Source: Candidatus Altiarchaeota archaeon (GTDB lineage: Archaea > Altiarchaeota > Altiarchaeia > IMC4 > SCGC-AAA252-I15). From it: a stretch of 20,030 nucleotides of DNA. The DNA lies in contig JAZDMS010000042.1 of the NCBI GenBank assembly GCA_043800705.1, positions 1 through 20,030 of the forward strand, given 5' to 3'. Below are positions 2-19,181 of the stretch, in pieces (position 1 is the stretch's first letter; every line of letters begins with the position of its first letter). Both the position numbers and the translations under genes were made by a program. The notes beneath the pieces were generated by a model, which worked only from the letters and a program-made list of their open reading frames with translations, was not told the origin of the DNA and ran no database searches.

Positions 2-3000
2 GGCTTTCACGATCTGCTCGTAGTTTTCCCGAAGCTGCTCCTTCATACTCTCCCTGTCCGTGACGTCCCTGAAGATGTAGATGGCCTCATTGACAGTCCT
101 GTCGGCGACGACGGGGAATGCCTTCACCTCGTGATATCTCCTTCCGTCGTCGTATTGGTGGTTGTGGATGGACTCCGATGTCCTGCCGCTTCTGAACACC
201 TCCCTTACCACGCAATTGCGGCATGCGGATTTGGCGTCGTGGATTATGTCAAAGCACTTCTTCCCGAGGCAGTTCAGGTTGGGCCTGCCCACCCACCGCT
301 GGAAGGCCTTGTTGTAGCTGACTATGTTGTATCTGCGGTCCAGGACGACTATGGATTCGCTTATGCCGTCGAGGACCGTCTCCAGGTGGGTTTTCACGTC
401 GAGGATCTCCTTCTGGGCGGTTTTCCGGTCCGTTATGTCGCGGAAAATGTCCAGGAATCCGTCCTCGCCCCTGTACTTCAGCGGCATGGACACCACGTCG
501 ACGTCGACGTGGGATCCGTCCTTGCGCAGGAGCATCTCCTCCACCCGGGGGGCTATCGTACCCTTTCTTCTCATCATGCTGATGCGGTCGTTGACGATCT
601 TTCTGGATTCCGGATGTACTCCTTCCAGGAACGATTTCCCGATGGGCTCGTTCATGTCCTTAAAGCCCGTAATCTTCGCTGCGGCCTTGTTCATGTAGAC
701 GACCCTGCCTCCGGAATGGATTGCTATCCCATCCGGCGCGTTTTCGACGAGCATCCTGTACCTCTCCTCGCTATCTCTCAAGGCCTCCTCTCCGATTTTT
801 TTATCAGTGACGTCATTGATGACTGTCACGACCCTCACGACCATATCCCCCTCGAATACGGGCAGCTTCCTTGTTTCCGTGTACATGACCCTTCCATTGA
901 CCGTGTTCACGTCAAATGTTGTGATGGCCTTCCCCGTCTTGAACACCCTCTCGTATTCGTCTCCGACACTCTTGGGGAGGAATGGGAACACCTCATATAT
1001 GCTCCTTCCTATGACTTCTGTGGTCAGGCCGGCGCCCTTATTGAATTGGACGAGCTCATCATTGCATATCAGGATCCGCATTTCCCTGTCGACAAGGTGT
1101 ATGAAGGCCTTCATGGCGTTGATCGTCGTGCGGTACCTTATCTCGTTCTCCTTGAGGGCCTCTTCGGCAGTCTTCCGTTCCGTGATGTCTTCGATCATGG
1201 CTATATACCATCGTAGTCCCCCATCCTTGTCGTGTATCCCGGATATCGTCGACGACGCCCAGAAGACCCCCCCATCCTTCCTCATGTACCTCTTCTCGGT
1301 CTTGTAGACGGGGGCCTTCCCCCTGGCCATGCTCATTATGCCCTCCCAGTCCTTGGCTACGTGGTCAGGGTGGGTGATGTCCTTGAACGTCTTTGCAGTC
1401 AGTTCCCTCTCGCTGTAGCCCGTCATCCTGCAGAACACCTCGTTTGCCTTGGTGAACCTTATCGTCTCCGCGTCTGTCATCGCCATCCCGAGGGGGCCGG
1501 TCTCGAAGACCTTCCTGAAGCGCTCCTCGCTCTCCCTTAGGGCTTCCTCGGCCTTCTTCCGTGCCGTTATGTTCCTCGACATGCCGAGGACAGATTTCAC
1601 CCTGCCTGCTTCGTCTTTGAGGGGGATAAGCCACGTGTCCAGGGTCAGGGTCCCCAGGAGCGGGAAGCTGGTGATATTCTCGATGTAGGTAGCCTCGCCG
1701 GTCTGGAACACATTCTGGATGGATTTGGCCTGCCTGGCATGCTCCTTCGGGAAGAGCTCCCCTATACGCTTTCCGACCATCTCTTCGGAGGGGCGCCCGA
1801 AGGCCTTCGCGCTGATCCTGTTGGCGTAGCTGACGAGGCCCTCGCGGCTGATTATAAATATGAAATCCTGGGAGGATTCGGAGAGCGCCCTGTATTTTTC
1901 CTCGCTCTCCCGAAGCGCCTCTTCGGACTTCTTCCGCTCGCTTATGTCCCATGCGGTTATGATGATGCCCTTGATGCTCGGGTGCGAGAGCATGTTCTGG
2001 CCGATGGCCTCAAGGGACACCCAGTGCCCGTCCCTGTGCCTGAAGCGGAACTGAGTAGGGATGTATTTGTTCACCGCGTCGACCACTTCTCCAAAGTCCT
2101 TTTTCACGAGTTCAAGGTCCTCCCTGTGGATGAAGTCGAAACCCCTTTTTCCGATGAGGTGTTCCTGCTCAAATCCGAGGACCCTCGCAGTCGAGGGTGT
2201 CGCGTACTTTATCCGGGTGTCCGTGTCGAGGATGAACACGACCTCCGAGAGGTGCTGGACGATGGACCTCCAGCGCTCCTCGCTGTCCCTGAGCGCTTTT
2301 TCGGCCTGCAGCCTCTCGACCTGCGCCCCGAGCTCCCAACCGATGGATGTGAGCACCTTGCGCTCTTCGCTGCTGACGGTGTGCTTCTTCCTGCTCACGA
2401 GGTTCATCGTCCCGATGACGCGCGTGCCTGCCATTATCGGTATGATTATTATGGACTCGAATCCGTAGGATGCGCGTTCCGGGGAAAAATTCCGGTAGTC
2501 GTCTGTGGCCATCACCTCCCCGTGCCGCAGGGCGTCGGCGTACTTAGACGTGTCGGGCTTCATTACCCCGGCAGTTTTTAAGAAATCTTCAGGGATGTTT
2601 TGGTGGCATATCAGCCTCGCCATGCCATCCCCCTCGTCGAAGAGGTAGACCCCTCCGGCATCGAATTCCATGAGCCTAATCGTCTGTTCGAGGGCGAGTT
2701 TCATGAATTTGGGGAGATTTTCGGCCTGGATTGAGGATGTGACAATATCGTTAAGGGTCTCGAGCATCTTCGCCCTCGACGACAGCTCCACGGTCCTCTC
2801 CCTTACCTTCTCCTCTAGGCCGTCCCGGACTATGCGGAGCTCCTCCTCTATCTTGTTGCGTTCGGTGAAATCCCGTATTATCCCCACTATGTACTTTTTG
2901 CCGTCCTTGCTGGTGTAAAGGGTCTTCTTGGTGACGATGGTCCTGGTGACTCCTTTTGCGTCGGTGAACCGCTCCTCGTTGACGTTCTCCCCGCCCGTGG

Positions 3001-3268
3001 TGAACACGAGCTCATCCTTCTCCCAGAAAACGTCGGCTTCGCCCTTGGGGAAGAATTCGTAGTCGGATCTGCCGATAAGCATCTCCCTGGGGTGGCCCAT
3101 GAAGATGCATAACGCGTCGTTCAGGAGGACCCACCTGTGCTCCCGGTCCTTGACGAATACGGGGTCAGCGATGGAGTTTACTATGTTTATTAACGTATCC
3201 TCGGATATGGCGATTACCGCTTCAGTCTGAGCGTCCTTTGGTCCACCTTCAGGCGGGCTTTCCGTCAT
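2..3268 (-). CDS. Multi-sensor PAS/GAF protein, probable histidine kinase (3'-partial; PAS-GAF-PASx6, >1089 aa)
   Basis: Not in the ORF track because there is no stop in the window. Translated by hand from ATG 3268 (ATGA overlap with the receiver stop): MTESPPEGG...IVNSIADPVFVKDREHRWVLLND...GIIRDFTERNK (PAS), then FDAGGVYLFD...SIIIIPIMAGTRVIGTMNL (GAF), then six more PAS units, mostly joined by D(I/V)T-ERK-x-AEEAL-RESEERYR-type linkers, ending ...IFRDVTDRESMKEQLRENYEQIVKA at the window edge. The kinase domain is inferred, not seen. Confidence 0.93.
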   Translation of the reverse strand, partial: MTESPPEGGPKDAQTEAVIAISEDTLINIVNSIADPVFVKDREHRWVLLNDALCIFMGHPREMLIGRSDYEFFPKGEADVFWEKDELVFTTGGENVNEERFTDAKGVTRTIVTKKTLYTSKDGKKYIVGIIRDFTERNKIEEELRIVRDGLEEKVRERTVELSSRAKMLETLNDIVTSSIQAENLPKFMKLALEQTIRLMEFDAGGVYLFDEGDGMARLICHQNIPEDFLKTAGVMKPDTSKYADALRHGEVMATDDYRNFSPERASYGFESIIIIPIMAGTRVIGTMNLVSRKKHTVSSEERKVLTSIGWELGAQVERLQAEKALRDSEERWRSIVQHLSEVVFILDTDTRIKYATPSTARVLGFEQEHLIGKRGFDFIHREDLELVKKDFGEVVDAVNKYIPTQFRFRHRDGHWVSLEAIGQNMLSHPSIKGIIITAWDISERKKSEEALRESEEKYRALSESSQDFIFIISREGLVSYANRISAKAFGRPSEEMVGKRIGELFPKEHARQAKSIQNVFQTGEATYIENITSFPLLGTLTLDTWLIPLKDEAGRVKSVLGMSRNITARKKAEEALRESEERFRKVFETGPLGMAMTDAETIRFTKANEVFCRMTGYSERELTAKTFKDITHPDHVAKDWEGIMSMARGKAPVYKTEKRYMRKDGGVFWASSTISGIHDKDGGLRWYIAMIEDITERKTAEEALKENEIRYRTTINAMKAFIHLVDREMRILICNDELVQFNKGAGLTTEVIGRSIYEVFPFLPKSVGDEYERVFKTGKAITTFDVNTVNGRVMYTETRKLPVFEGDMVVRVVTVINDVTDKKIGEEALRDSEERYRMLVENAPDGIAIHSGGRVVYMNKAAAKITGFKDMNEPIGKSFLEGVHPESRKIVNDRISMMRRKGTIAPRVEEMLLRKDGSHVDVDVVSMPLKYRGEDGFLDIFRDITDRKTAQKEILDVKTHLETVLDGISESIVVLDRRYNIVSYNKAFQRWVGRPNLNCLGKKCFDIIHDAKSACRNCVVREVFRSGRTSESIHNHQYDDGRRYHEVKAFPVVADRTVNEAIYIFRDVTDRESMKEQLRENYEQIVKA

Positions 3269-3633
3269 GCTAGCGCCTTTTTAACGTGCTTGATGAGCTT
3301 CTCCCTGTCGAACGGCTTGGTTATGTAGTCCGAGACGACGTCCTGGAGCCCGAATATCTCCACCCCCGGGCCCTTCTCGACAGTCAGGATGATCACCCTG
3401 GTCTTGTCGGTCACCCTGTTCTCCTTGAGTTTTTTCAGCGTAGTCCACCCGTCCATCTGCGGCATGCGGATGTCGAGGATTATGAGGTCGAACTCCTCCC
3501 TCGACGTCTTCTCCAGGCATTCTTTGCCGCTTGCGGCGCTCGACAGGGTAAATCCGGCCTGAGCGAGCACCAGCCTGAGTATGTCGACCATGTCAGGCTC
3601 GTCGTCCACAACCAATATCCTATTCTTCTTCAT
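3265..3633 (-). CDS. Stand-alone CheY-like response regulator (receiver domain only)
   Basis: Motifs ILVVDDE, DLIILDIRMPQMDG (phosphoacceptor Asp), IILT and DYITKPF. ATG 3633 is preferred to 3645 because it follows GGTGAGGAG and overlaps the upstream stop. Confidence 0.96.
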   Translation of the reverse strand: MKKNRILVVDDEPDMVDILRLVLAQAGFTLSSAASGKECLEKTSREEFDLIILDIRMPQMDGWTTLKKLKENRVTDKTRVIILTVEKGPGVEIFGLQDVVSDYITKPFDREKLIKHVKKALA

Positions 3634-5119
3634 TCTCCTCACCACCCTTTACGCTCGCTGGGCTTGTCACGATCGCCTTGCCCTTGTCGGTCACCTCGAG
3701 GAACTTGTACCTGCCCTCGTTCAGTATCCTCAAGAGGCCCTTGCTTTCCAGCTCGTAGATCCTCTTACGGGCCGTGGTCTTCGTGATCAAGAACTTCTTC
3801 GTGATGCTCTTGAACGACGGAGTCCTCCTCCTGAGGTTTTCCGCTGAAACAAATAGGAGAACTGAATATAAAGGTTCGCCCAGGGTGATCTTGTCGGCGT
3901 TGGTGAGGTCTTCGAGCTCCTGGGTGAGGAGGGCCAGCTTCTCCCGGCTCAGGGTCGACGGGTCCAGCGAAATGAGCAGCATGCACCTCGATGCCATTAT
4001 GATGTCGTTCAGGTTGTGTATGAACTTCAGGACCGTGTTGAAGTCGTTCTCCGTGATGAGATAGTCCAGGCGCTGGATGAGGATGATCGAGTCTATGTCG
4101 AACCTGATGAAATCCTTAATGATGAAGGCAATCCTATCCAGGTCCGTCGGCTTGACAGTCTTCTCGTCGGTCTTTGCGTTCGTCATCCAGAGCACAGGCG
4201 TCGTCCTCAAGCCGAAGCTTTGCCGCACTCGGGAGGGTTGCGTCCTTGTGAGCATGAGTCCGTGGTGGTTGTGTGTGACGAATTCCGTGAATATCTCCAT
4301 GCTCTGGGTCGGGGTCTCCTCCAGGATGAGGTAACAGTACCCCTTCTTCAGCCGGTATTTCTGCGGCTTCTTGTCTTTTTTCTCGCCGAGGGGTATCAGG
4401 TGGACTCCCCGCGCCTGGGCCTCGAGTATGAGCATGACCACCGTTACCAGGAGGAGGAGTACGGCAAAACACTGCGTCAGCACCCCGACGAGGCGTATGA
4501 CGTATTTGGCTCCTGAGCCTATCCCGTAGACGTATACGTAGTTGACGAGCACCGGGTCGACGATGAGGAGCATGGACCCGAGCCTTGCGCTGGAATAGGC
4601 CAGGAGCCTGTACCTGGGTATGTAGTTCTGCGTCAGCTTGCCGATCGCAAGGAAGACGAGCACCATGGACGTGACCGAGAGGTTGTAGGCGATCAGATGC
4701 CATGCCGTCGCATCGTTCGTGTAACCCGCAAAGAAGGAGATGATGGGTATGACGATGCCTATCAACGCGAGCCCCTTCACCGTGTTCTGTGTCCTGTCGA
4801 GGCTTATCTTCTGGAAGTTCAGAAGCTGCAGCGACGCAAACGCGGCGATTATCGTCCCCAGAAGCAGGATCGTGCTGGCTATGAGCTGGCTCTCCGAGGT
4901 CGTGTCGCCGTAGACGCTGATGTAGTAGGATGTGATGGCGGGATACGCGGTCGCCAGAACCATGGCGACGATATACGCCCTCCACTGGGTCTTGAAGCGC
5001 GTGTAATGTTCTATGCAGTATGATAAGATGGCAAGCGACAGCAGCGGGATAACCCACGTCACCAGGCTCAAAATGTTTGCTACGGTGTTAACCAAAAACC
5101 ATTCCCCTTGTGCGGGCAT
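3620..5119 (-). CDS. Membrane protein with about 7 TM helices, DUF835 (degenerate KaiC-like) domain and C-terminal winged helix-turn-helix
   Basis: Seven hydrophobic segments in aa ~15-232. DUF835-type motifs GLMLTRTQP, PVLWMT, VKPTDLDRI, IILIQRLDYLITENDF, VLKFIHNLND, LLISLDPSTL. wHTH-like tail PSFKSITKKFLITKTTARKRIYELESKGLL...LEVTDKGK. Confidence 0.85.
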   Translation of the reverse strand: MPAQGEWFLVNTVANILSLVTWVIPLLSLAILSYCIEHYTRFKTQWRAYIVAMVLATAYPAITSYYISVYGDTTSESQLIASTILLLGTIIAAFASLQLLNFQKISLDRTQNTVKGLALIGIVIPIISFFAGYTNDATAWHLIAYNLSVTSMVLVFLAIGKLTQNYIPRYRLLAYSSARLGSMLLIVDPVLVNYVYVYGIGSGAKYVIRLVGVLTQCFAVLLLLVTVVMLILEAQARGVHLIPLGEKKDKKPQKYRLKKGYCYLILEETPTQSMEIFTEFVTHNHHGLMLTRTQPSRVRQSFGLRTTPVLWMTNAKTDEKTVKPTDLDRIAFIIKDFIRFDIDSIILIQRLDYLITENDFNTVLKFIHNLNDIIMASRCMLLISLDPSTLSREKLALLTQELEDLTNADKITLGEPLYSVLLFVSAENLRRRTPSFKSITKKFLITKTTARKRIYELESKGLLRILNEGRYKFLEVTDKGKAIVTSPASVKGGEENEEE

Positions 5120-5202: not shown

Positions 5203-6267
5203 TCAATGAACCGTTTTCTTTTCCTCGATGTACAGCCTTAGATAATCCGTTCTGCCAGCCTGTTGGGCCTTTTCCCTGTATCCCCCCCTCCTTGCGATCC
5301 TGTCGAGGGCCTTGTTGGTTCCGCTGCCGTATTGTGCGGCCTTTTTCACCCTGTCTGCGACATAATCCGGGACGCCCATCCTCCTGGCAAGCATTTTGAG
5401 AGCGTATTTTCTGATGAATCTACGCCCACGGATCACATCGGACGAAAGGTCCTCGGTATTCGGTTCTCGGTTTTCGGTTCTCAGTTCTCGGTTTTCGGTT
5501 CTCAGTTCTCGGTTTTCGGTTCTCAGTTCTCGGTTTTCGGTTCTCAGTTCTCGGTTTTCCGTTTTCGGTTTTCGGTTTTCCGTCAAGACTGAATACTGAG
5601 GACTGGAAACTGCAGACTGGGAACTGGAAACTGAAAACTGAGGACCGTAGACTTCGCGTATCTTCAGATCCAGCGGCATCCCCCTGGCGTAGTTCGAGAA
5701 TCCCCTATCCAGGTATGGGAACCTCAGTTCGCATCCGTTGGCCTTGTTCATCGCGATGTCCCGCTCAAGGTTGTCCTCATACGCGTTTTCCCAGTCTTTC
5801 TCCATCCACAGAGCCACGGCTTCCGGCCCCTTCTCGAGCATGCATTCGAGGTATCTCCAGTATCCTCCGAACAGTTCGTCGCCGCCCTGTCCGCAGAGCA
5901 TCACATCCATTCCATCCTCTTTGGCGGCCTTCGAAGCCGCGTAGAACGGGATCCCGACGCCGACGTCGATGGGGTCCGGCTCATCCAGGAGCGACAGGAC
6001 CGTCGGGACGAGACGCTCGACGTCCTCTTGCCCGAGTATGACGTGCCTGATCCTGAACGGGGCGGATTCCTCCAGCATTTTCGCGAATTTCGTGTCTTCC
6101 GCGCCTTCTACGCCGACGTGGTATGCGGTGACTTTCGCATGTTTCGCGGCCGTGTATGCGACCAGGGCTGAATCGACGCCCGCGGAGAATACTATCCCCA
6201 CTTCCGGTTCAGAGACGGATTTTACGGCGCCGTCGAACAGCCTCTCGAGGTCTGTCAGCCAGTCCAT
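5203..6267 (-). CDS. Asparagine synthase C-terminal (PP-loop synthetase) domain protein without a glutaminase domain, with an in-frame repeat insertion
   Basis: PP-loop FSAGVDSAL, CGQGGDELFGGY, LRFPYLD and the C-terminal motif RKYALK...VP...RVKKAAQYGSG. No N-terminal Cys1 Ntn domain. Confidence 0.88.
   Translation of the reverse strand: MDWLTDLERLFDGAVKSVSEPEVGIVFSAGVDSALVAYTAAKHAKVTAYHVGVEGAEDTKFAKMLEESAPFRIRHVILGQEDVERLVPTVLSLLDEPDPIDVGVGIPFYAASKAAKEDGMDVMLCGQGGDELFGGYWRYLECMLEKGPEAVALWMEKDWENAYEDNLERDIAMNKANGCELRFPYLDRGFSNYARGMPLDLKIREVYGPQFSVSSSQSAVSSPQYSVLTENRKPKTENRELRTENRELRTENRELRTENRELRTENREPNTEDLSSDVIRGRRFIRKYALKMLARRMGVPDYVADRVKKAAQYGSGTNKALDRIARRGGYREKAQQAGRTDYLRLYIEEKKTVH
5453..5648. 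repeat. Bipartite heptamer tandem repeat forming an imperfect inverted repeat
   Basis: 5453-5585 holds 19 units of consensus TCRGTTY, including 4 exact copies of the 21-mer TCGGTTTTCGGTTCTCAGTTC at 5467-5550. It directly abuts 9 units of consensus RRACTGR at 5586-5648, the reverse-complement type. Confidence 0.95.
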
Positions 6268-7677: not shown

Positions 7678-8064
7678 CTAGGCGGTCGGTATATATTCGA
7701 CGTTCTTCTTGTCCTTGAAGTGCTGGTCTGATGTCACGATCAAAGCCTTATGTCGTCTGGCCGTTGCATAGATTATCGCATCCGCCATGCCAAGCTCTTC
7801 GGCGACGCTGATGTCAGCCGCATCCAATGCAAGGGCTTCATCCAGATTGATGACAGTTGTGTAGTGGGTTATGTAGGCGTGGGCTTCGATAGCCTTGTCC
7901 CGGCCCACAGAAGATTTCAGCCGTTTGTAGACTTCATAAATGACGACGGAGGGTGTGAAGTACTGGTTTTTATCCGCCTTATCTATATGGGCAGCGTAAC
8001 GGTGGGCTAGTCTTCCGTCGCAGAAGTATTCGATCCAGCCGTAGCTGTCAATCAAAACGTTCAC
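7678..8064 (-). CDS. vapC: VapC PIN-domain toxin
   Basis: VLIDSYGWIEYF, VIYEV, LGMADAIIYATA and IVTSDQHF give the acidic PIN tetrad. The GTG start overlaps the end of the antitoxin gene. Confidence 0.95.
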   Translation of the reverse strand: MNVLIDSYGWIEYFCDGRLAHRYAAHIDKADKNQYFTPSVVIYEVYKRLKSSVGRDKAIEAHAYITHYTTVINLDEALALDAADISVAEELGMADAIIYATARRHKALIVTSDQHFKDKKNVEYIPTA

Positions 8065-8312: not shown

Positions 8313-9161
8313 TTAGACTATCGATGGTATTTTCGACTCGCAGGGGACGCCACACTGGCAGAGGCCGCATGCGGCCGTCTTGAGGCCGTATCTTTCCAGC
8401 GCATATTCTGATGCGGCCCCGTTGACATATTCCCTGCATTTCACTTTGTCGTGGCCTTTTTCCGTTATAGCCCCTGCGGGGCATCTTCCTGCGCAGGCGA
8501 CGCATTTTTCGGCCTGGAAAAATAGGCAATTCTCCCTGTGGTCCTTGAAGCGCCGCCCATTAGGCTTAAGCTTCATGTCGGTGATGGCGCTGCCGATCCT
8601 CACCGCTATCCCCTTCTCGGTTATGAAGCCGTCGCTCAGGCTGAACGTCCCCAAGCCCGCGGCATAGGCGGCATGCCGTTCGCTCCAGTTGGAGGCTCTG
8701 CCGACATTGTCGTCGAAAAGCGTCTCGAACCTGTCGGAGGCGGCGGATGCTACTGCCTTGAATCCGTCGCGCGTAAGCAGCTTCACCACCCGATGCCTCA
8801 ACAGTTGGTTGAATCTCTCGCCATACAGTTTGGTCAGCGCCCACCGCCGGGACGGATACCCCATCTCCTCGCGGTTGCTTATCCTCGTCGCCTCGGTTAT
8901 GGGCAGAGCCCAGCATATTACCGAACCGCTGTCGAATCTTTCGCCAGGATATGTTTTTCCAAGCCACTCGAGTGGGGTGGAGTGGAAGCCGCCGATTATT
9001 CGCTTATAGTCCTGGAATATCCCGTCTCTTGCGTCTGCGAAGCCGATGACCGGCTCGTCAAAGATGCGCTCGCCCTGGAAACCGGGCATCATATTGCCTG
9101 CATCACCTGCAACAAAAGCCGTTATCTCAGCTCTAAGTTCACGTTCGTCCACGCCGGACAA
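8313..9161 (-). CDS. Epoxyqueuosine reductase (QueG)/reductive dehalogenase-like 2x[4Fe-4S] protein
   Basis: SERHAAYAAGLGTFSLSDGFITEKGIAVRIGSAITD, plus Cys clusters C-x7-CVACAGRCP and KC...ACGLCQCGVPC. The TTG start is uncertain. Confidence 0.85.
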   Translation of the reverse strand: MSGVDERELRAEITAFVAGDAGNMMPGFQGERIFDEPVIGFADARDGIFQDYKRIIGGFHSTPLEWLGKTYPGERFDSGSVICWALPITEATRISNREEMGYPSRRWALTKLYGERFNQLLRHRVVKLLTRDGFKAVASAASDRFETLFDDNVGRASNWSERHAAYAAGLGTFSLSDGFITEKGIAVRIGSAITDMKLKPNGRRFKDHRENCLFFQAEKCVACAGRCPAGAITEKGHDKVKCREYVNGAASEYALERYGLKTAACGLCQCGVPCESKIPSIV

Positions 9162-12408: not shown

Positions 12409-12648
12409 GTGGTTGTGTTGGTTGTCAGAAAGGTTTTAACTTGTGAGACTAGGCTTGAGCGCGCCGGCAAGAGGCAGACCGTCTACGACATAATCCACGG
12501 CCTGCACGAGCTTAACACCACCAGTCTCAGGGCGGAAGCGCAGCGGCGGAAGATCGAATCGGTCGAACTCAAGGAGATAATCGTCGAACTGAGGCAGAAA
12601 GGCCTGATATATTCCCCGAAGCCGGGGATGTTCACCTGCGTCGACTAG
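12409..12648 (+). CDS. Small winged-helix protein resembling the archaeal MCM C-terminal domain
   Basis: VYDIIHGL...LRAEAQRRKI...LKEIIVELRQKGLIYSPKPG. Start uncertain (GTG 12409 or 12415, or TTG 12418 after GGTGG). Confidence 0.6.
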   Translation: MVVLVVRKVLTCETRLERAGKRQTVYDIIHGLHELNTTSLRAEAQRRKIESVELKEIIVELRQKGLIYSPKPGMFTCVD

Positions 12649-15257
12649 AGCGAGCTCAGCTTCGTCGTCGGCTTCTCATCATCCCCCTTTTCCTCGCCCC
12701 TTCTCAGTATCGCGATGATCCTCCTGGCCGCGGTATCCAGGAAGTAGAGACACAATGCGAGGGCGCCGAAGTATGCCCAGAGGTCCTGCGGATCCCTTAT
12801 CTCCAGCGTGGACGTCTCCTTCAGCCTTGAGATGATGTCATCGGCCATCGCGGTCGCTTCGGCCTCGGTGTACACCCTTGAGCCCGTGGTTGCTGCAATG
12901 CGCCTGAGGGTGTCTTCGTCTATCCCAAGGGGGGAATATTCCCCCGGGTAGTTGACTGCCACGGCGTCGAGGTCCTGTTTCGGCTCGAGCCTGGCTATTA
13001 TTCCGTAGAAGCCGAGGTCCTTCGGCATGAACGATCCGGTGTAGCTGTTCAGGGACGTCCTCGTCAGCAGCACCAGCGGCGCGTCGCCGGTCGCTGCGTT
13101 CTTGGCTTCCGCATGCGGCAAAGCAGGCGCCTTGACCTGTAGTAAGACCGGGTTTCCGAGGCTTGCGTCCTGGGAGCTGATCCTGATGGCTTTGCCTTTC
13201 TCCAGGTCCCCGATGATCCAGTTCGTCATCGCCGATACGACTTTGCCTGAGTCGACTGATATGAGGTCCTGCCCCCATTGTAGGCCGTTGTCGGAGGTGA
13301 GAGCCGCGACCCTGCCGAGGCCGAAGTTCCATACCGTCAGTATGGGTTTTCCGCCCTTGGTGGAAAGCAGCATCTGTGCGACGCTCTTTTCGTGGACCTT
13401 GTTGAATCCGCTCACAGCCGTCCCCTTCTCCTGAAGATCGGGCAGGCTGCGGGTTATGTAGTGGTAGTCGTCGGTCATCACGACCGGTGTCGTGTCCTTG
13501 GTCTTGTCGTCCGCCTGGTCGCCGAAGACGATCTTCAGCCTGTTGTCCGGGTTTGATTTAAGGCTGAAGTACTGTCCCCCCCCGGCGCGTGCCATATCGT
13601 CCATGAATTGTTCGTCGGTGTCGAAGCCGACCCCCACCGTGAACGTCTTTATGCCTTCGTCCTTCATCTGCCCGACCCTGTCGATCGCCATCTGCATCCT
13701 CGTGCTCCTGATGACTCCGTCGGATATGATTATGAGGTACTTGTCCACGGTCTTTCCCCTGAGGTCGGATTCCGCGGCCTCGATGGCCGACTGTATGTCG
13801 GTGCCTCCGCCGAACCTGAGCTCCCTTATGGTCTGCCATGTGTCGTCGAACTTCGGGCCGAGCGGGGTGAGGGGTGTCACGACGTAGGGGTTCGTGTTGA
13901 ATGCGTAGACGCCGACTGAGTCGTTCGCGTTCAGGGCGGAGAGCATCCTGAGCGCCACCGCCTTTTCGACGTCTATCTTGGAGTCCGCTCCGGTGCCGTA
14001 TTCCGTGCTCTCCGACACGTCTATGAGGAAGACGATCGCGAAGTCCCTCCTGCGCTCGACGGGCTTGTCCGTGCTCTTCACAGGCAGTATGTTCTCGACG
14101 AAGCTGTTGTTGTAGCCTCCGTATTCGAAGCTGTTCCTGCCGCCTATGAAGGCGACGCCGTTGCCCTCCTCCATCACGTACTTCCTTATCCTGTTCACGA
14201 TGTTCCGATCGAAGTCCTTTTCGTTGATGTTGTCGAATATGAGCCCCGCATACTTGCCGTAGTCGTTATCCACCTGCCTGGTGACCTCGACCTCGTAGAG
14301 CTTCTTGAGGGCGTCTAGCATCGGCGAGGACGAGTTCCCGGTCACATACAGGATCTTCGGCTTTTCGACGACCTTGACGGTCTTGTAGTAGACGTCGTTC
14401 TCTGGAAAACCCCTGCCGCCGGTGTCCAGTTCGACTTTTATCTCGTGCACCCCGATGTCCTTGATGCTCAGGATCAGCGGAATGTCCTTGAGGGGTTCGG
14501 CCTGCTTGTAGGGTTGCTGGTTGTAGAACCTCCGTATGCCGTCGACGTATACGTTGATGTCGTATGAGACCTCGCGATCCGCGGTGCTGGCGATCCTTAA
14601 AAGGAGGTCGTATTTCGTGTTCGCCGGGATCTTTTTGTCGCCCACCGCGGCCTGGATGTAGATGTCGTCCGCCTTTTTGGCGGGTTTCAAGGAGTATATC
14701 GTGGAATTGGTCTGTGCAAGGACCTTGGCCATGTCCACCGGATTCCTGCCGTGGTTGTTCTGTCCGTCGGAGATGACGACCATAGTCATGGGCTGCCCCC
14801 CATACTGGACCATATTGTGGTATATCGCGTCCCCAATGGCGGTCCTGTTGCCGTCGGAGACGTACTCTATCTTGACATTCTGGGTGCTCCCAGTCAGGTT
14901 CCCGACCTGGGTCTTGATCCTGTCGTATATCGCGTATCCGGTGTTCGGGGCGTCGGGGTACAGGCGCATGCTCGGCGAGGAGTCCAGGAGCACGGTTATG
15001 GGGTGTGCGTCGTCGACGGTCTTGTGCGTCTTGTAATAGAGGGGGGACGCCAGCGCCATGGCCACCAGCAGGATTATCACCGACCGGACCAGGAGGAAGC
15101 CGATCCTTGTTTTGGTCGCTTTGCCCCTGAGGAGGTAGGCCGCGAAAAAGGCGAGAAGCGGCAGGAGTATGAGCAGGTACTCGGGGTACATGAAGCCCGC
15201 AGGCGTGCCGAAGAGGTCGAACTCTATCTTTGCCGCGGCGATCGACTCGTTCATCAT
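12645..15257 (-). CDS. Membrane-anchored double-VWA protein with Ig-like and GATase-like modules
   Basis: Two N-terminal TM helices. VWA1 LLDSSPSM...VISDG. GGRNSFEYGGY...LPV and WNFGLGRVAALTSD segments. VWA2 LIDVSEST, GGGTD, IISDG, TVGVG, GGGQYF. C-terminal TM. Confidence 0.9.
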   Translation of the reverse strand: MMNESIAAAKIEFDLFGTPAGFMYPEYLLILLPLLAFFAAYLLRGKATKTRIGFLLVRSVIILLVAMALASPLYYKTHKTVDDAHPITVLLDSSPSMRLYPDAPNTGYAIYDRIKTQVGNLTGSTQNVKIEYVSDGNRTAIGDAIYHNMVQYGGQPMTMVVISDGQNNHGRNPVDMAKVLAQTNSTIYSLKPAKKADDIYIQAAVGDKKIPANTKYDLLLRIASTADREVSYDINVYVDGIRRFYNQQPYKQAEPLKDIPLILSIKDIGVHEIKVELDTGGRGFPENDVYYKTVKVVEKPKILYVTGNSSSPMLDALKKLYEVEVTRQVDNDYGKYAGLIFDNINEKDFDRNIVNRIRKYVMEEGNGVAFIGGRNSFEYGGYNNSFVENILPVKSTDKPVERRRDFAIVFLIDVSESTEYGTGADSKIDVEKAVALRMLSALNANDSVGVYAFNTNPYVVTPLTPLGPKFDDTWQTIRELRFGGGTDIQSAIEAAESDLRGKTVDKYLIIISDGVIRSTRMQMAIDRVGQMKDEGIKTFTVGVGFDTDEQFMDDMARAGGGQYFSLKSNPDNRLKIVFGDQADDKTKDTTPVVMTDDYHYITRSLPDLQEKGTAVSGFNKVHEKSVAQMLLSTKGGKPILTVWNFGLGRVAALTSDNGLQWGQDLISVDSGKVVSAMTNWIIGDLEKGKAIRISSQDASLGNPVLLQVKAPALPHAEAKNAATGDAPLVLLTRTSLNSYTGSFMPKDLGFYGIIARLEPKQDLDAVAVNYPGEYSPLGIDEDTLRRIAATTGSRVYTEAEATAMADDIISRLKETSTLEIRDPQDLWAYFGALALCLYFLDTAARRIIAILRRGEEKGDDEKPTTKLSSL

Positions 15258-17209
15258 AGTAAGCCCCTTTTGCGGTACAGGATCAGCTCGACGACGAGCC
15301 CTGCCAGCATTATCAGAAGCAGGTACCTGAAGACCTCGACCTTCACGTCTACTTCGTTGCGTCTGACCTCGTATTCCCCGCCGGCTGCCGCCTCGCCGAT
15401 CGAGCCCGTGATGTTGGATTCCGCGGAATCGAGCAGGTTCACGGTGACGTGATCGGTCCTGTCGGGGTATGCTACCTCATAGACTCCCGCCTTGTCGAGG
15501 AAGAGGCTAGAGGACCGTATGGTCAGCCCGGGCGGCGTCTGGATGTCCAAGCTCTGGGGGAGCTGGAGATATTCTCCGGTCTGGAGGGTGGTCGCCTGGG
15601 CGGAGCCCTTGTTCCGGGTCAGGTATGCGACCATCCTGGACCAGAATATCGGAAACGAGGAGCTGTAGTAGAAGTTGCTCCAATCGGGGTCGGTGTTGAT
15701 GCCTATGTATACTACGGTCCCTTCGCCGTACGGCCTATAGGTTATGAGCGGGGTGTTGAACTCCGATGCGACTATGGTCTTGGTCAGGTTGTCCCTCTCC
15801 CTCGAGTTGTAGTACCTCTTCACGACGACGTTTTCGAAGGCCACGTCCATCAGCATGTCGTGCTCCTGTGCGACCTGGACCTTGGCCTCCCTCGTGCTGA
15901 TGTCGGCCCTCTCCACGGGCATCATCTGCCACAGGTAGCCGTCATCTTTCACGTCGTTTAGGCTCCCCGAGCCCATGACGACGAGGTTCGTCCCCTTCTG
16001 GACCTGGCTCGATATGTACCTGAACGTGTCGGGGGTTATGTCCCTGCGCATGGTCCCGAGGACGATTATGTCAAAGTTGTTGTTGACGCTCAGGGGCGAG
16101 ATGCTGGTGTCGTATAAGACCGGCTGCCTGACGTTCCGAAGCGATTCGAGCATCCGCTGGAGATAATAGTCCTGGCCCGAGGACATTAGCACCAGGATGC
16201 TTGACTGCCTGACCGCGGGGATGAATGTATAGGCCGTGTCGTCAGCTGATAAACCGTCATCCCCCCCCTCGAGGCCGACCTTTATCAGGTTTTCCCCGCT
16301 TGAGATATTGGGTTTGAAGTAGAAGAATCCCTCGCCGCCGGCGTCCACGGACTTTTTCTGGGAGCTCAGGTATGCGCCGCCGGAGTAGACCGTCATGTTC
16401 ACTTCCGAGGCCTCCTGCCCGAAGTTCCTGACCGAGGCGGTCATGAAAAGCTCCCCCTCGTTGGCGCTGGATCGTTTGGCGTCGAGGCTGACGATGCCGA
16501 CGTTCGCGCCGCCGGAGCCGAACTTCAGGAACTCGACCTCGACCTGGGACACCATGGCGACGCGTTTGGCGATCTGCGGGTCCAGGCCCCCTCCCTGGGC
16601 GAAATCGGACAGTACATACATGACCTTCATGCGGGTCGAGCCTGTCAGAATGTCGCGGCCGAGCATCATCGCGTCCCCGACGTTCGTGGGAGTGTCGGAT
16701 ACGTTGAGTTTCCCGAGCATCCCGTAGGCGGCCTCGGGAGAAGCCTTCGTCGCGACGAGGGCCGGTATGTTCTCCGCGACGACTATGGATACCTCGTCGT
16801 TCTTGTTGAATCCCCTGATGAGTTCCCTCGCCTTGGAGACCGCTGCCTGGAACCTGGTCGGGCTCTCGTCGGTGGCCTGCATGCTGGCCGAGGCGTCGAT
16901 GACGACGACTATCGACTGTTCTGGCCTTATGTCCTCTTTCGAGTCGTAGTACGGCGCCGCGAGGGCGGCGACCAGGAGGGTTATGATGAGCAGCTGCATC
17001 AGCAGGAGCGGGTCGTGTATGAACCTCTGCAGGAAGCTCGTGAACCTCTTGTTCTTTTCCATGAACCTGATGAACATGGTCGACGGGAACAGGACGATCT
17101 TCGGCTTCGGGCGAAGGAGATACAGGAGCACAATCGGGACTATGAGGGCGAGCCCTGCGAGTGCCATGGGATTGACGAAGATTGAGGATAACGGCAGTAT
17201 CTCAGCCAC
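15254..17209 (-). CDS. BatA-type N-terminal double-TM VWA protein
   Basis: FVNPMALAGLALIVPIVLLYLLRPKPK...FPST...LLLMQLLIITLLVAALAAP, then MIDAS VIDASASM, TRFQAA, VLSDF, and a C-terminal TM. Confidence 0.92.
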   Translation of the reverse strand: MAEILPLSSIFVNPMALAGLALIVPIVLLYLLRPKPKIVLFPSTMFIRFMEKNKRFTSFLQRFIHDPLLLMQLLIITLLVAALAAPYYDSKEDIRPEQSIVVVIDASASMQATDESPTRFQAAVSKARELIRGFNKNDEVSIVVAENIPALVATKASPEAAYGMLGKLNVSDTPTNVGDAMMLGRDILTGSTRMKVMYVLSDFAQGGGLDPQIAKRVAMVSQVEVEFLKFGSGGANVGIVSLDAKRSSANEGELFMTASVRNFGQEASEVNMTVYSGGAYLSSQKKSVDAGGEGFFYFKPNISSGENLIKVGLEGGDDGLSADDTAYTFIPAVRQSSILVLMSSGQDYYLQRMLESLRNVRQPVLYDTSISPLSVNNNFDIIVLGTMRRDITPDTFRYISSQVQKGTNLVVMGSGSLNDVKDDGYLWQMMPVERADISTREAKVQVAQEHDMLMDVAFENVVVKRYYNSRERDNLTKTIVASEFNTPLITYRPYGEGTVVYIGINTDPDWSNFYYSSSFPIFWSRMVAYLTRNKGSAQATTLQTGEYLQLPQSLDIQTPPGLTIRSSSLFLDKAGVYEVAYPDRTDHVTVNLLDSAESNITGSIGEAAAGGEYEVRRNEVDVKVEVFRYLLLIMLAGLVVELILYRKRGLL

Positions 17210-18080
17210 GTTTCCTGCCTCCCCCCACAGCCTTCACGAAGGCGTCGAATATCGGCATGTCGGTGGTGATGGTCGTGAAGTCTATCCCGAGGCCCTTGCA
17301 TATCTCCTGGAGCTTGGCGTTGTGGTCCCTTATCCTCTGCGAGTATTCCCGCTTGAAGCTCGGAGAGACGAACGTCTGCTTCAGCTCCGACGTCTCCAGG
17401 TCCTGGAACTTTATGTCGTCGCGCCATCCCAGGTCCAGCTCCCAGGGGTCGAGCACCTGGACGAGCATCATCTCCTTCGAGTGCTTCGCCATCCTGTAGA
17501 TCCCCTCCTGGACCGATTCCGGGTTCTCGATGAAGTCGCTGATGACGATGCTGAACGCCTTGCTCTTGATGAGCTTCCCGTACTGCGCGGCGGAGACGCC
17601 GAAGTCCGTGGTGCCCTTCAGTTCGGTGGTGTTGAGCATGTCTATCACGTTGAACAGGTGGTTCTGGCTCTTCTTCGGCTGGGTCAGCTCCCTGAGCGCG
17701 TTAGCGTAGAGGGCGAGCGCGAACTTCTCGTGGTTGTGGACCGCGAGGTAGCCGAACCCCACAGCGAGGCTCCCCGCATAGTCGAACTTCGTCATCCCCC
17801 CAGTCTTGAAGTTCATGCTGGAGCTCGCATCGACCAGGATATGGACCGTCAGCTCCTTCTCCTCCTCGAACCTCCTGATGTACAGCTTCTCGGTCCTGCC
17901 GTAGACCCTCCAGTCTATAAGCCTGAAGTCGTCGCCGGGGATGTACTCCCTGTAGTCGATGACCTCGATGCCCCTGCCATGCTTTATGGAGGGGCGGCCT
18001 CCGGCGTATACGCTGGAGACCTTCTTGCTTATCACTAGGTCCAGCTCCTTCAGCTGGTCGAGGAAGGAGGGGTCTATCAT
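17202..18080 (-). CDS. DUF58 protein (MoxR-associated, VWA-like)
   Basis: GRGIEVIDYREYIPGDDFRLIDWRVYGRTEKLYIRRFEEE, LVDASSSM, VISDF, QVLDPWE. Confidence 0.96.
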   Translation of the reverse strand: MIDPSFLDQLKELDLVISKKVSSVYAGGRPSIKHGRGIEVIDYREYIPGDDFRLIDWRVYGRTEKLYIRRFEEEKELTVHILVDASSSMNFKTGGMTKFDYAGSLAVGFGYLAVHNHEKFALALYANALRELTQPKKSQNHLFNVIDMLNTTELKGTTDFGVSAAQYGKLIKSKAFSIVISDFIENPESVQEGIYRMAKHSKEMMLVQVLDPWELDLGWRDDIKFQDLETSELKQTFVSPSFKREYSQRIRDHNAKLQEICKGLGIDFTTITTDMPIFDAFVKAVGGGRKRG

Positions 18081-18085
18081 CCCCT

Positions 18086-19147
18086 TCAGACCTCCTTGAG
18101 TATCTGGCCTATCACGTCGTCGGTACTCATGCCCTTCCTCTCGCTCTCGAAGTTCAGGATTATCCTGTGTCTCATCACCGGGTACGCCATCGCCTTGATG
18201 TCGTCCTTGCTTACGTAGTTGCGGCCGTTCAGGAGCGCCCTCGCCTTGGAGGCCAGGACTATGCCGATGCTCGCCCTGGGCGATGCCCCGTAGTCCAAAA
18301 ACTGCGAGGCGGTGTTCTTCGCGTGCGGCCTCGATGCGGCGACGACCCTGAGGGCGTAGTCCCTGACATCCGCGGATATGGGCATCTTCTTGGTCAGGTC
18401 CTGGATGGCCAGGACGTGCTCGCGTCGGAGCACCTTGTTTACCGTGGGTGTGAATTCGCTGGAGTACATCTCGACTATCCTGTCCTCCTCCTTGAGGCTG
18501 GGGTAGCCGACCATTATCTTCAGCAGGAACCTGTCCACCTGCGCCTCAGGCAGGGGATACGTTCCCTCCATCTCAATCGGGTTCTGTGTCGCGAGGACGA
18601 AAAAAGGCCGCTCGAGCTTGTGCGTCGTGGTCCCCATGGTGACCTGCCTCTCCTGCATGGCCTCCAGCAGCGACGACTGCGACTTGGGCGTAGCCCTGTT
18701 TATCTCGTCCGCGAGGAGTATGTTGGTGAACACGGGGCCTTCTTCGAAGCGGAACCTCTTCTTGCCGCCGACGTCCTCTTCCACGATGTACGTTCCCGTG
18801 ACGTCGGAGGGCATGAGGTCCGGAGTGCACTGGATCCTCCTGAACTTCAGGTCCATGATGCTCGCCATCGTCCTGACCATCATGGTCTTTCCGAGGCCGG
18901 GGAATCCTTCCAGCAGCGCGTGGCTGTCGGTGAAAATGGCGACCAGGAGCTGTTCAAGGACGTCGTCCTGGCCTATGATCACGCGCGCGACTTCGCGGCG
19001 TACGTCCGCATACGTGTTCTTCATCTGGCCGTAGACCTTCCTCAGGTCGACGGACTCCACGTCCCGTTCCGCCCTCGTCGGGCTGCTTCCTGGCCTCTCG
19101 TCCACGCTGTCCCACAGGCTCCTGCCCCCGGTGTTTTCGCTTGCCAT
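18086..19147 (-). CDS. moxR: MoxR-family AAA+ ATPase
   Basis: Walker A GFPGLGKT, RIQCTPDLMPSDV, Walker B LLADEINR, ATQNPIEMEGTYPLPEAQVDRF, GASPRAS, MRHRI. ATG 19147 preferred (alternative GTG 19156). Confidence 0.97.
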   Translation of the reverse strand: MASENTGGRSLWDSVDERPGSSPTRAERDVESVDLRKVYGQMKNTYADVRREVARVIIGQDDVLEQLLVAIFTDSHALLEGFPGLGKTMMVRTMASIMDLKFRRIQCTPDLMPSDVTGTYIVEEDVGGKKRFRFEEGPVFTNILLADEINRATPKSQSSLLEAMQERQVTMGTTTHKLERPFFVLATQNPIEMEGTYPLPEAQVDRFLLKIMVGYPSLKEEDRIVEMYSSEFTPTVNKVLRREHVLAIQDLTKKMPISADVRDYALRVVAASRPHAKNTASQFLDYGASPRASIGIVLASKARALLNGRNYVSKDDIKAMAYPVMRHRIILNFESERKGMSTDDVIGQILKEV

Positions 19148-19181
19148 AGATACCACTTAATAATCCGTTTATGTATTAAAG

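Follow-up and report, generated by a model that had tools for sequence, protein, structure and literature searches.

A palindromic heptamer-array insert within an asparagine-synthase-like gene of an altiarchaeal genome

How does a long palindrome built of seven-nucleotide repeats come to lie inside the reading frame of an enzyme gene, and what becomes of it there? The question is raised by a 20,030-nt stretch of DNA from a Candidatus Altiarchaeota archaeon (hereafter, the window), which is contig C16 of the 2.0-Mb, 43-contig genome G000. An earlier note on this DNA had described the palindrome and read it as a small hairpin element, non-autonomous and either REP/RPE-like or grown by slippage, that the enzyme tolerates in a surface loop.

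The inserted segment and its host gene

The host gene (5203..6267, minus strand) was identified by ORF, Pfam, and Foldseek analyses as encoding a 354-aa, stand-alone synthetase (ATP-pyrophosphatase) domain protein of the asparagine synthase B type. Pfam PF00733 matched the protein in two separate stretches (E 2.3e-39), and the predicted model returned human ASNS (6gq3_A; E 5.9e-12) as its top Foldseek hit, followed by E. coli AsnB (1ct9). On the strength of the PF00733 match and the predicted AsnB-like fold, we assign the product to the asparagine synthase B family. The glutaminase domain is absent, and the family assignment thus does not extend to the substrate.

The palindrome consists of two opposed arms. 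On the plus strand, 19 phased heptamers of the GTYNNCN type (GTYYTCR units) form a long arm at 5449..5581, which is T-rich on that strand and purine-rich on the sense strand of the gene, where it encodes TENRKPK and TENRELR repeats. Nine phased NGNNRAC heptamers of the complementary type form a short arm at 5590..5652 (plus strand), whose sense strand reads as a T-poor GTYNNCN arm encoding YGPQFSVSSSQSAVSSPQYS, with TTTT in only one of its nine units. The arms meet at an 8-base, near-palindromic core, GTCAAGAC (5582..5589; no strand applies), centered at 5585/5586; this 8-nt spacer is all that separates them, and no ORF lies between. When read instead as TCRGTTY units from 5453 and RRACTGR units from 5586, the repeats span 5453-5648 without a spacer and with the same center, the degenerate unit TCCGTCA being the final one ahead of it, and the counts and coordinates given in the earlier note for this register (19 and 9 units) were correct. 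Tandem Repeats Finder reported the left arm at period 7 (18.6 copies, score 155) and, with a higher score of 208, as a 21-bp super-repeat of three units, or seven codons (5463..5580, plus strand; 5.6 copies, 95% matches), which was also recovered as a direct-repeat family; the right arm was reported at period 7 with 9.9 copies. Arm-to-arm complementarity was 71-72% over 59-68 nt. Folding of both strands, as the earlier note had proposed, gave -61.4 kcal/mol for the sense-strand RNA (z -3.9; none of 200 shuffles was as good) and -41.3 kcal/mol for the plus-strand DNA (z -6.0; better than all 200 shuffles). A search of the array against Rfam yielded only sub-threshold matches to eukaryotic miRNA-precursor hairpin models (21-46 bits vs. 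gathering scores of 60-144), and an identity with such precursors was rejected, the scores being so far under threshold as to reflect a generic likeness of hairpins.

Codon-level comparison with orthologue DNA, together with protein alignments, placed the inserted segment at 5452..5652 (minus strand; 201 nt, 67 codons, V206-E272), between 'DLKIRE' and 'DLSSD..GRRFIRKYA' and with the downstream part in frame, in agreement with the position that the earlier note had read from asparagine synthase motifs; both of the low-complexity peptides it described are present in the 354-aa ORF. Orthologues carry only two codons at this site (DG, GA, or GG), as expected of what was thought to be normally a short loop, and the net gain in the window is 195 nt, or 65 codons (273 nt vs. 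78 nt in G001, G003, and G004). Orthologues are shorter (271-325 aa), the other stand-alone homologues listed range from 194 to 325 aa, those with a name all being labelled Altiarchaeota, and the closest homologue listed is 293 aa long and 82% identical. The insert was absent from all 25 distinct homologues compared residue by residue, among which a similarly long loop might have undone the earlier reading, and from the orthologues of G001, G003, G004, and G017; in two alignments (12 and 14 sequences) and in orthologous proteins from the genomes of four relatives, no more than 2-10 residues separated 'DLKIRE' from 'DL.CDE..GRRF.RKYA'. To judge from these alignments, the insert is lineage-specific. 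The 81 residues downstream of it retain every residue that is invariant in the family. The alignment with orthologues thus defined the empty site, CGG GAG GAC GGC GAC CTT, which itself resembles two units, whereas a target duplication, also sought in that comparison, was not found: at the codon level no target-site duplication was recognizable at the window copy, and sharp ends of the element could not be defined.

A structure predicted from a 78-sequence alignment (mean pLDDT 91, pTM 0.83) showed a confident core on either side of the insert. Residues 207-237 of the model have no secondary structure (pLDDT below 50 at 211-233), while residues 238-266, comprising the TENRELR repeats, form one helix with a pLDDT of ~88 for the block. 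The prediction fits an insert that is a surface excursion outside the confident core, as would be expected if it were tolerated in a surface loop.

Head-to-head heptamer arrays across the genome

To count comparable arrays, we asked for runs of four or more successive heptamers with G, T, and C in fixed positions. This phase test found 83 arrays in G000, as opposed to 2, 2, and 1 when it was run on three genomes simulated from a third-order Markov model of G000; therefore, chance does not explain the arrays. Grouping them after dropping two overlapping calls gave 56 loci, and Tandem Repeats Finder returned 124 period-7 rows for the genome. The unit consensus was G-T-Y-Y-T-C-R, with GTTTTCG and GTTTTCA the commonest units. 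Where arrays lay no more than 30 nt apart, a forward array was followed by a reverse one (FR) in 17 cases, with the orders RF, FF, and RR seen 1, 2, and 1 times, respectively; the head-to-head architecture is thus nearly always fixed. The junction was usually GTY-AA-RAC, and the flanks of 18 FR loci showed only a loose extension of the palindrome (GAA-GTC...GAC-TTC) and no target duplication. Since arrays sit at contig ends (C1:201-483 and C33:3-177), the array count is a lower bound. The scan for head-to-head, 7-periodic arrays that the earlier note had in view thus uncovered a family of 56 loci with a strong bias of orientation, and a family of 83 arrays is not the single-copy element that would have told against that note. 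Its statement that no mobilizing gene is adjacent also held, in that no transposase domain was found among the 12 other window genes searched and the two flanking genes.

Gene context was taken from our own crude ORF caller (1,810 genes, 85% coverage), which placed 20 loci within ORFs, 9 across the end of a gene, and 27 between genes. Pfam scans of 20 array-bearing ORFs showed that at least six long arrays (≥8 units) are in frame within conserved genes. In Hef the array codes for residues 509-574 and separates Helicase_C from ERCC4, and in MetRS it codes for residues 554-590 and separates the anticodon domain from tRNA_bind. Further long arrays are in genes for an FNR/PyrK-like reductase (residues 149-209, splitting NAD_binding_1), a PRMT-like methyltransferase (residues 244-279), and a TP_methylase, and in all five of these genes the array is within or between Pfam-matched parts. 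Short arrays (4-6 units) occur in genes for DHBP synthase, HypF, threonine synthase (ThrC), a metallophosphoesterase, ribulose-phosphate epimerase, and others. Relatives lack the residues that the MetRS and Hef arrays encode, five of five in each case, with three of the five belonging to the same genus. The encoded peptides recur, in the form of an S/Q/V-rich stretch followed by TENRKPK- or TEDRGLK-type repeats, and the peptide VLTENRKPKTEN is common to the window protein and an HD-domain protein.

Read on the sense strand, genic arrays have the purine-rich form in 20 cases and the T-rich form in 8, all of the latter being the first arms of FR pairs. For such sequences, an open frame is weak proof of translation and weak evidence of selection: of the 96 frames in non-genic arrays that reach 80 nt or more, 31 are open as well. 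We likewise dropped the idea of selection against stop-bearing units in genes, as units bearing TGA made up 44 of 195 inside genes and 108 of 443 outside, with no difference. Because open frames are common outside genes and TGA units are not depleted inside them, the picture is one of survivorship, in which copies land widely and those with an open frame in a tolerant loop remain.

Outside genes, the family favors 3' ends. With non-genic arrays read on their T-rich strand, a gene's 3' end lies no more than 60 nt upstream of 25 arrays and a 5' end of 6, while 21 have no gene at that distance, so that 3' ends account for 25 of 31 cases. At several FR loci, the arrays take up all of the space between two convergent genes except for 3-5 nt next to each stop codon (C12:76829-77112 and C20:11300-11393). 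TTTT-bearing units are depleted in sense-strand T-type arms of genes, where they number 5 of 47, relative to antisense arms (37 of 142; Fisher p 0.027) and to arrays outside genes (130 of 429; p 0.0035), although both p values are overstated, the units being non-independent. Oligo-T tracts are archaeal termination signals, and termination at oligo-T would explain both the preference for 3' ends and the depletion of TTTT in sense arms.

Origin of the insert

Four loci (the window, C25:40969, C25:53395, and C25:69848) share both a core and an order of unit variants, GTTTTCC-[GTCAAGAC]-TGNAWAC-TGAGRAC-TGRAAAC, the only difference being in the third flanking unit of one locus. Since independent local growth would not give a shared order of variants, this points to descent of the cores from a common source. 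The 21-bp super-repeat of the window, in turn, points to recent growth by slippage in three-unit steps that keep the frame; a similar super-repeat is present in the HD-protein copy, while Tandem Repeats Finder gave periods of 14, 28, 35, and 56 for intergenic arrays. The two alternatives of the earlier note therefore seem to apply in turn, the element having been copied and then grown by slippage, for which the 95% matches of the super-repeat speak. Its reading is essentially supported as far as it could be followed here, though a likeness to REP or RPE elements is not taken as membership.

We accordingly favor, with a probability of roughly 0.7 for the history as a whole, the reading of the insert as a gene-less copy of a dispersed, palindromic heptamer-array element. 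The element would consist of repeated GTYYTCR units that pass through a short GTC-AA-GAC core into repeats of the complementary unit. A copy would have been inserted into the asparagine-synthase-like gene, in the loop that joins 'DLKIRE' to 'DL.CDE', and survived because its length was a multiple of three and the frame used had no stop. Replication slippage would then have lengthened it in 21-bp steps, the sole steps that keep the coding frame. At present both the transcript and the protein of the gene would include it; in the protein it would protrude from the surface, first as a disordered Ser/Gln-rich stretch and then as a charged TENRELR helix, presumably without a role of its own in the enzyme. 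Outside genes, where copies lie directly behind stop codons with the T-rich strand in the sense direction, they would probably help to end transcripts or simply be tolerated. The source of the family was most likely a longer element whose arrays enclose a gene of the 23S-rRNA-intervening-sequence protein family (PF05635; 23S_rRNA_IVP). That the element has been mobile is something we infer from the pattern of its copies.

Growth in place is an unlikely substitute for this history. Under it, heptamer-like codons (GAA GAC GGY GAC) would have expanded by slippage and fold-back copying as a local microsatellite, with no DNA having moved. Such growth could draw on the microhomology of the orthologous site, which resembles two units, on the super-repeat as proof that slippage occurred, and on the failure to find either a target duplication or, in the RVT_1 and Y1_Tnp search, a transposase. 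It does not account for 56 loci with one unit family and one head-to-head plan, for four loci with an identical core and variant order, or for same-genus genomes that have the site but no array anywhere. The shared core and variant order likewise fit copying better than the healing of double-strand breaks by addition of repeats to both 3' ends, which would also give the F-then-R order and fits the data less well.

A second possibility, which we consider rather improbable, is that the hairpin is retained as a functional RNA that regulates the gene by attenuation, termination, or cleavage, making the 3' part conditional. The fold of the sense-strand RNA is strong (z -3.9), and the family does favor the 3' ends of genes with its T-rich strand in sense (25 of 31). 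In the window, however, the T-rich arm is antisense to the gene and the sense arm has TTTT in one of nine units, the 81 downstream residues retain all invariant residues, no orthologue has such an element, and the Rfam matches, to eukaryotic miRNA hairpin models, are far under threshold.

It is very improbable that the segment is an intervening sequence removed from the RNA, as in rRNA, and never translated. The element is a long hairpin, and elements bearing PF05635 are known, by the account in the excerpts of PMC4990558, to be excised in bacterial 23S rRNA. However, a cut mRNA would need religation, of which there is no sign here, and the whole codons without a stop seen in the window and in other genic copies are the pattern left by a filter of translation. 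Finally, we give scarcely any credence to a repeat array misjoined into the gene by a short-read assembler, because, although the arrays at C1:201-483 and C33:3-177 show that such sequences disturb assembly at contig ends, this one lies in the middle of a 20-kb contig between the two halves of one gene in one frame, and chimeric joins would rarely keep the frame both here and at the other genic sites.

Known repeats and the PF05635 connection

The palindromic elements (RPEs) of the genus Rickettsia, reportedly the subject of a study by Ogata et al. in 2000, invite comparison with a copied, gene-less element of this kind. As portrayed in the excerpts of a MITE review (PMC10969869), they are short palindromes with many copies in one genome, and many of these copies are inserted in the coding sequences of unrelated housekeeping genes without breaking the frame, where they yield extra peptide segments believed not to disturb the fold. 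The altiarchaeal repeat is similarly a multi-copy palindrome (56 loci) with copies in frame inside unrelated conserved genes such as those of Hef and MetRS. However, RPEs are ~150 bp of complex sequence with a conserved peptide, whereas the present arms are simple 7-nt repeats of varying length grown by slippage, and the host is an archaeon; the two are set apart by description, and we do not claim membership. A REP/RAYT system was also considered, as was a diversity-generating retroelement. Neither PF00078 (RVT_1) nor PF01797 (Y1_Tnp) was found in G000, which is 87.6% complete, while a control search with PF01797 found it in 6 of 14 known genomes. Because both were not found in a genome of that completeness, the results argue against a G000 PF05635 gene that is part of a diversity-generating retroelement and against a family of the REP/RAYT type; unlike REP/BIME elements spread by RAYTs, the present family is not accompanied by any Y1 transposase found in the 87.6% of G000 covered. 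[quoted passage not shown]

Dispersed heptamer repeats are known from heterocystous cyanobacteria as STRRs. Our literature searches found other bacterial cases. Excerpts of PMC4679880 describe TAACTGA heptamers in Beggiatoaceae, Cyanobacteria, and Bacteroidetes, with a one-base variant, AAACTGA, listed as encoding the same KLKTEN peptide, and those of PMC4692102 describe two further units: GGGAATC, which forms 70-75 convergent inverted pairs in Xanthomonas, and, in Nostoc, GGGGAYT, about one third of whose arrays are intragenic. According to the same excerpts, these repeats are mainly intergenic and have been proposed as translational or G-quadruplex signals (PMC4679880, PMC4692102). Our family resembles them in its 7-nt units, in its many dispersed arrays above chance, and in a patchy occurrence that suggests horizontal spread, and it resembles the Xanthomonas repeat in its convergent inverted pairs (here, FR 17 vs. 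RF 1). The purine-strand unit of the window, AAACTGR, is one base away from TAACTGA, and GTTTTCA is the complement of AAACTGA in another register, while GTTATCA, the TAACTGA-type unit, occurs in G000 only within the array at C30:46654. Going by those partial descriptions, the differences are the systematic in-frame residence in enzymes, the archaeal host, and the link to PF05635. Borg tandem repeats, which are fast-evolving, archaeal, and create disordered regions in proteins, differ, as far as the excerpts of PMC9879509 go, in being direct, local, and made of many different units as opposed to one dispersed palindromic family. Literature searches for palindromic in-frame elements and for heptanucleotide repeats in archaea returned, among the matches listed, no description of such a family.

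In the 23S rRNA intervening sequences of Coxiella, Leptospira, and Xanthomonas, an S23p/PF05635 ORF lies in the loop of an inverted-repeat stem; the Coxiella element has tandem GACAGAT heptamers, in strain-variable number, just upstream of that ORF, and a mobile-element origin is discussed by the authors (PMC4990558, excerpts). In contrast to the window copy, which has no ORF and lies in a coding gene, those elements are lodged in rRNA helices, from which RNase III excises them. An ORF-bearing copy does occur in G000, on a different contig from the window and in an intergenic position: at C1:22184-23122, inverted repeats enclose the single PF05635 gene of the genome (C1:22677-22985), which lies between arrays of window-type units, with about six tandem F-R hairpins ahead of it, starting from the stop codon of the upstream gene, and more arrays after it.

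PF05635 was found in 5 of 31 genomes. In G017, 15 F units precede the gene and R units follow from its stop codon, while in G024 the order is 3-4 F units, the gene, and ~5 R units, directly after the 3' end of a tRNA. The G000, G017, and G024 proteins share 50-59% identity with one another and 19-28% with the G019 and G008 proteins. The G019 gene is flanked by arrays of another unit (GGGATTA and CTAACCC; GGGRYTN), which is dispersed over at least 11 contigs of that genome and was found in none of G000, G008, G017, and G024. Altogether, the gene lies between arrays in three of six relatives carrying it. A general rule of heptamer-flanked PF05635 in every genome was rejected, the exceptions being G008, whose gene has no flanking heptamer arrays, and G059 and G060, where arrays occur along with a PF05635 gene of the same subfamily, but GTTACGCTACA repeats flank that gene; G053 has one array and no PF05635. 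Across 36 genomes, the cross-tabulation of arrays against PF05635 (4, 1, 3, and 28) gave a Fisher p of 0.0027, in which kin are counted as though independent. Among the bacterial GTTYTCR loci listed, 7 of 120 had a PF05635 ORF (Pfam cut-off) within 600 bp, which we estimate, from an uncontrolled count, to be more than ten times the chance rate. The link between the array family and PF05635, as read from genomic position, is suggestive, and the element family probably derives from PF05635-bearing elements. To our knowledge, PF05635 has no known role in DNA mobility and is not a known transposase. Our literature searches turned up nothing that connects PF05635 with heptamer arrays.

The distribution of the unit is patchy. 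A six-unit pattern was found in 2 of 31 relatives' genomes, with 125 matches in G000 and 94 in G017, which belongs to the same family but another genus, and none in four same-genus genomes; across the phylum, 5 of 61 genomes carry the pattern. The genomes are 57-97% complete, a level at which a missing match does not amount to absence. A five-unit scan for GTTYTCR with one genome per species returned at least 120 bacterial stretches, among the matches listed in Acidobacteriota, Planctomycetota, Bacteroidota, Chloroflexota, Verrucomicrobiota, Parabeggiatoa, Kuenenia, and others. Since the unit is widespread in bacteria and patchy in the Altiarchaeota phylum, this suggests its horizontal arrival in the archaeal phylum. 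A broader proposal, which we regard as possible but doubtful, is that the hairpins are gene-less derivatives of a class of selfish elements in which opposed heptamer arrays surround a PF05635 gene (encoding an Avd/S23p-like four-helix bundle), a design as in the 23S rRNA intervening sequences. Such a class would cross between bacteria and archaea, each PF05635 lineage would spread its own unit, and its copies would seed disordered or helical segments in essential proteins.

We thus read the insert of the asparagine-synthase-like gene as a member of an archaeal family that resembles RPEs in its behavior and heptamer repeats in its make-up. If this is true, selfish DNA translated within proteins, as known in Rickettsia, also occurs in an archaeon, where it affects core enzymes such as MetRS and Hef, and the Rickettsia type of behavior is carried by the simplest repeat imaginable. 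It would also link the dispersed heptamers of cyanobacteria, Xanthomonas, and Beggiatoa with rRNA intervening sequences and PF05635 proteins. For annotators, it would mean that such arrays lengthen real genes, break assemblies, and mimic frameshifts or low-complexity artefacts.

Insert site and gene neighbourhood of the host gene

In the alignment of host-gene homologues, the closest homologue of the asparagine-synthase-like gene (P0002, 82% identity) carried an acidic loop, VNGEEDADG, precisely at the insert site. This loop is slightly longer than the DG or GG of the other homologues and may be either a leftover of an older insert or a sign that the loop is permissive. Immediately downstream of the host gene, the minus strand carries three consecutive genes (window 2-5119), which encode a large PAS/GAF sensor protein, a receiver-domain protein and a membrane DUF835 protein. 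Elsewhere in the window, a PIN-domain gene (7678-8064) adjoins a 282-aa ORF (8313-9161) for which no Pfam match was found, and positions 12645-19156 hold a Bat/aerotolerance-type cluster, made up of genes for a MoxR-type AAA ATPase, a DUF58 protein and two VWA/BatA-type proteins.

Other repeats at contig ends

Long imperfect ACT/ACG-rich repeats with a period of 9-15 nt were observed at three contig ends of the window's genome, G000 (C9:1-473, C8:10329-10806 and C12:85317-85539), and are probably part of at least one Thr/Ser-rich repeat gene that broke the assembly. Three further stretches (C32:1-130, C42:1-117 and C10:30225-30355) held near-perfect 17-nt repeats at two contig ends, which are mutual reverse complements, and an 18-nt repeat at the third; neither repeat is related to the heptamer family.

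PF05635 genes and their flanking repeats

The sole gene of G000 for a PF05635 (23S-rRNA-intervening-sequence) protein, the candidate source-element gene of the heptamer family, is enclosed by approximately six tandem head-to-head heptamer hairpins (C1:22184-23122; L031:1008-1946), the first of which begins precisely where the upstream gene has its stop codon, with GGAAACT|TCGGTT recurring as the boundary between successive hairpins. The PF05635 genes of two relatives, G059 (L153:1150-2100) and G060 (L154:1-850), belong to the same subfamily but are flanked by several copies of GAGTTACGCTACA, accompanied by a short inverted copy, rather than by heptamers. Downstream of these genes and their GAGTTACGCTACA flanks is a conserved ORF of ~30 aa (MYKR.I.G.WY.YRS...). 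In a third relative, G024 (L030:1290-1430), the PF05635 unit, which has few heptamers, starts immediately downstream of an apparent tRNA 3' end (GGTTCGAATCCC...CCGCA), and this adjacency in the sequence suggests that the unit was inserted next to a tRNA gene.
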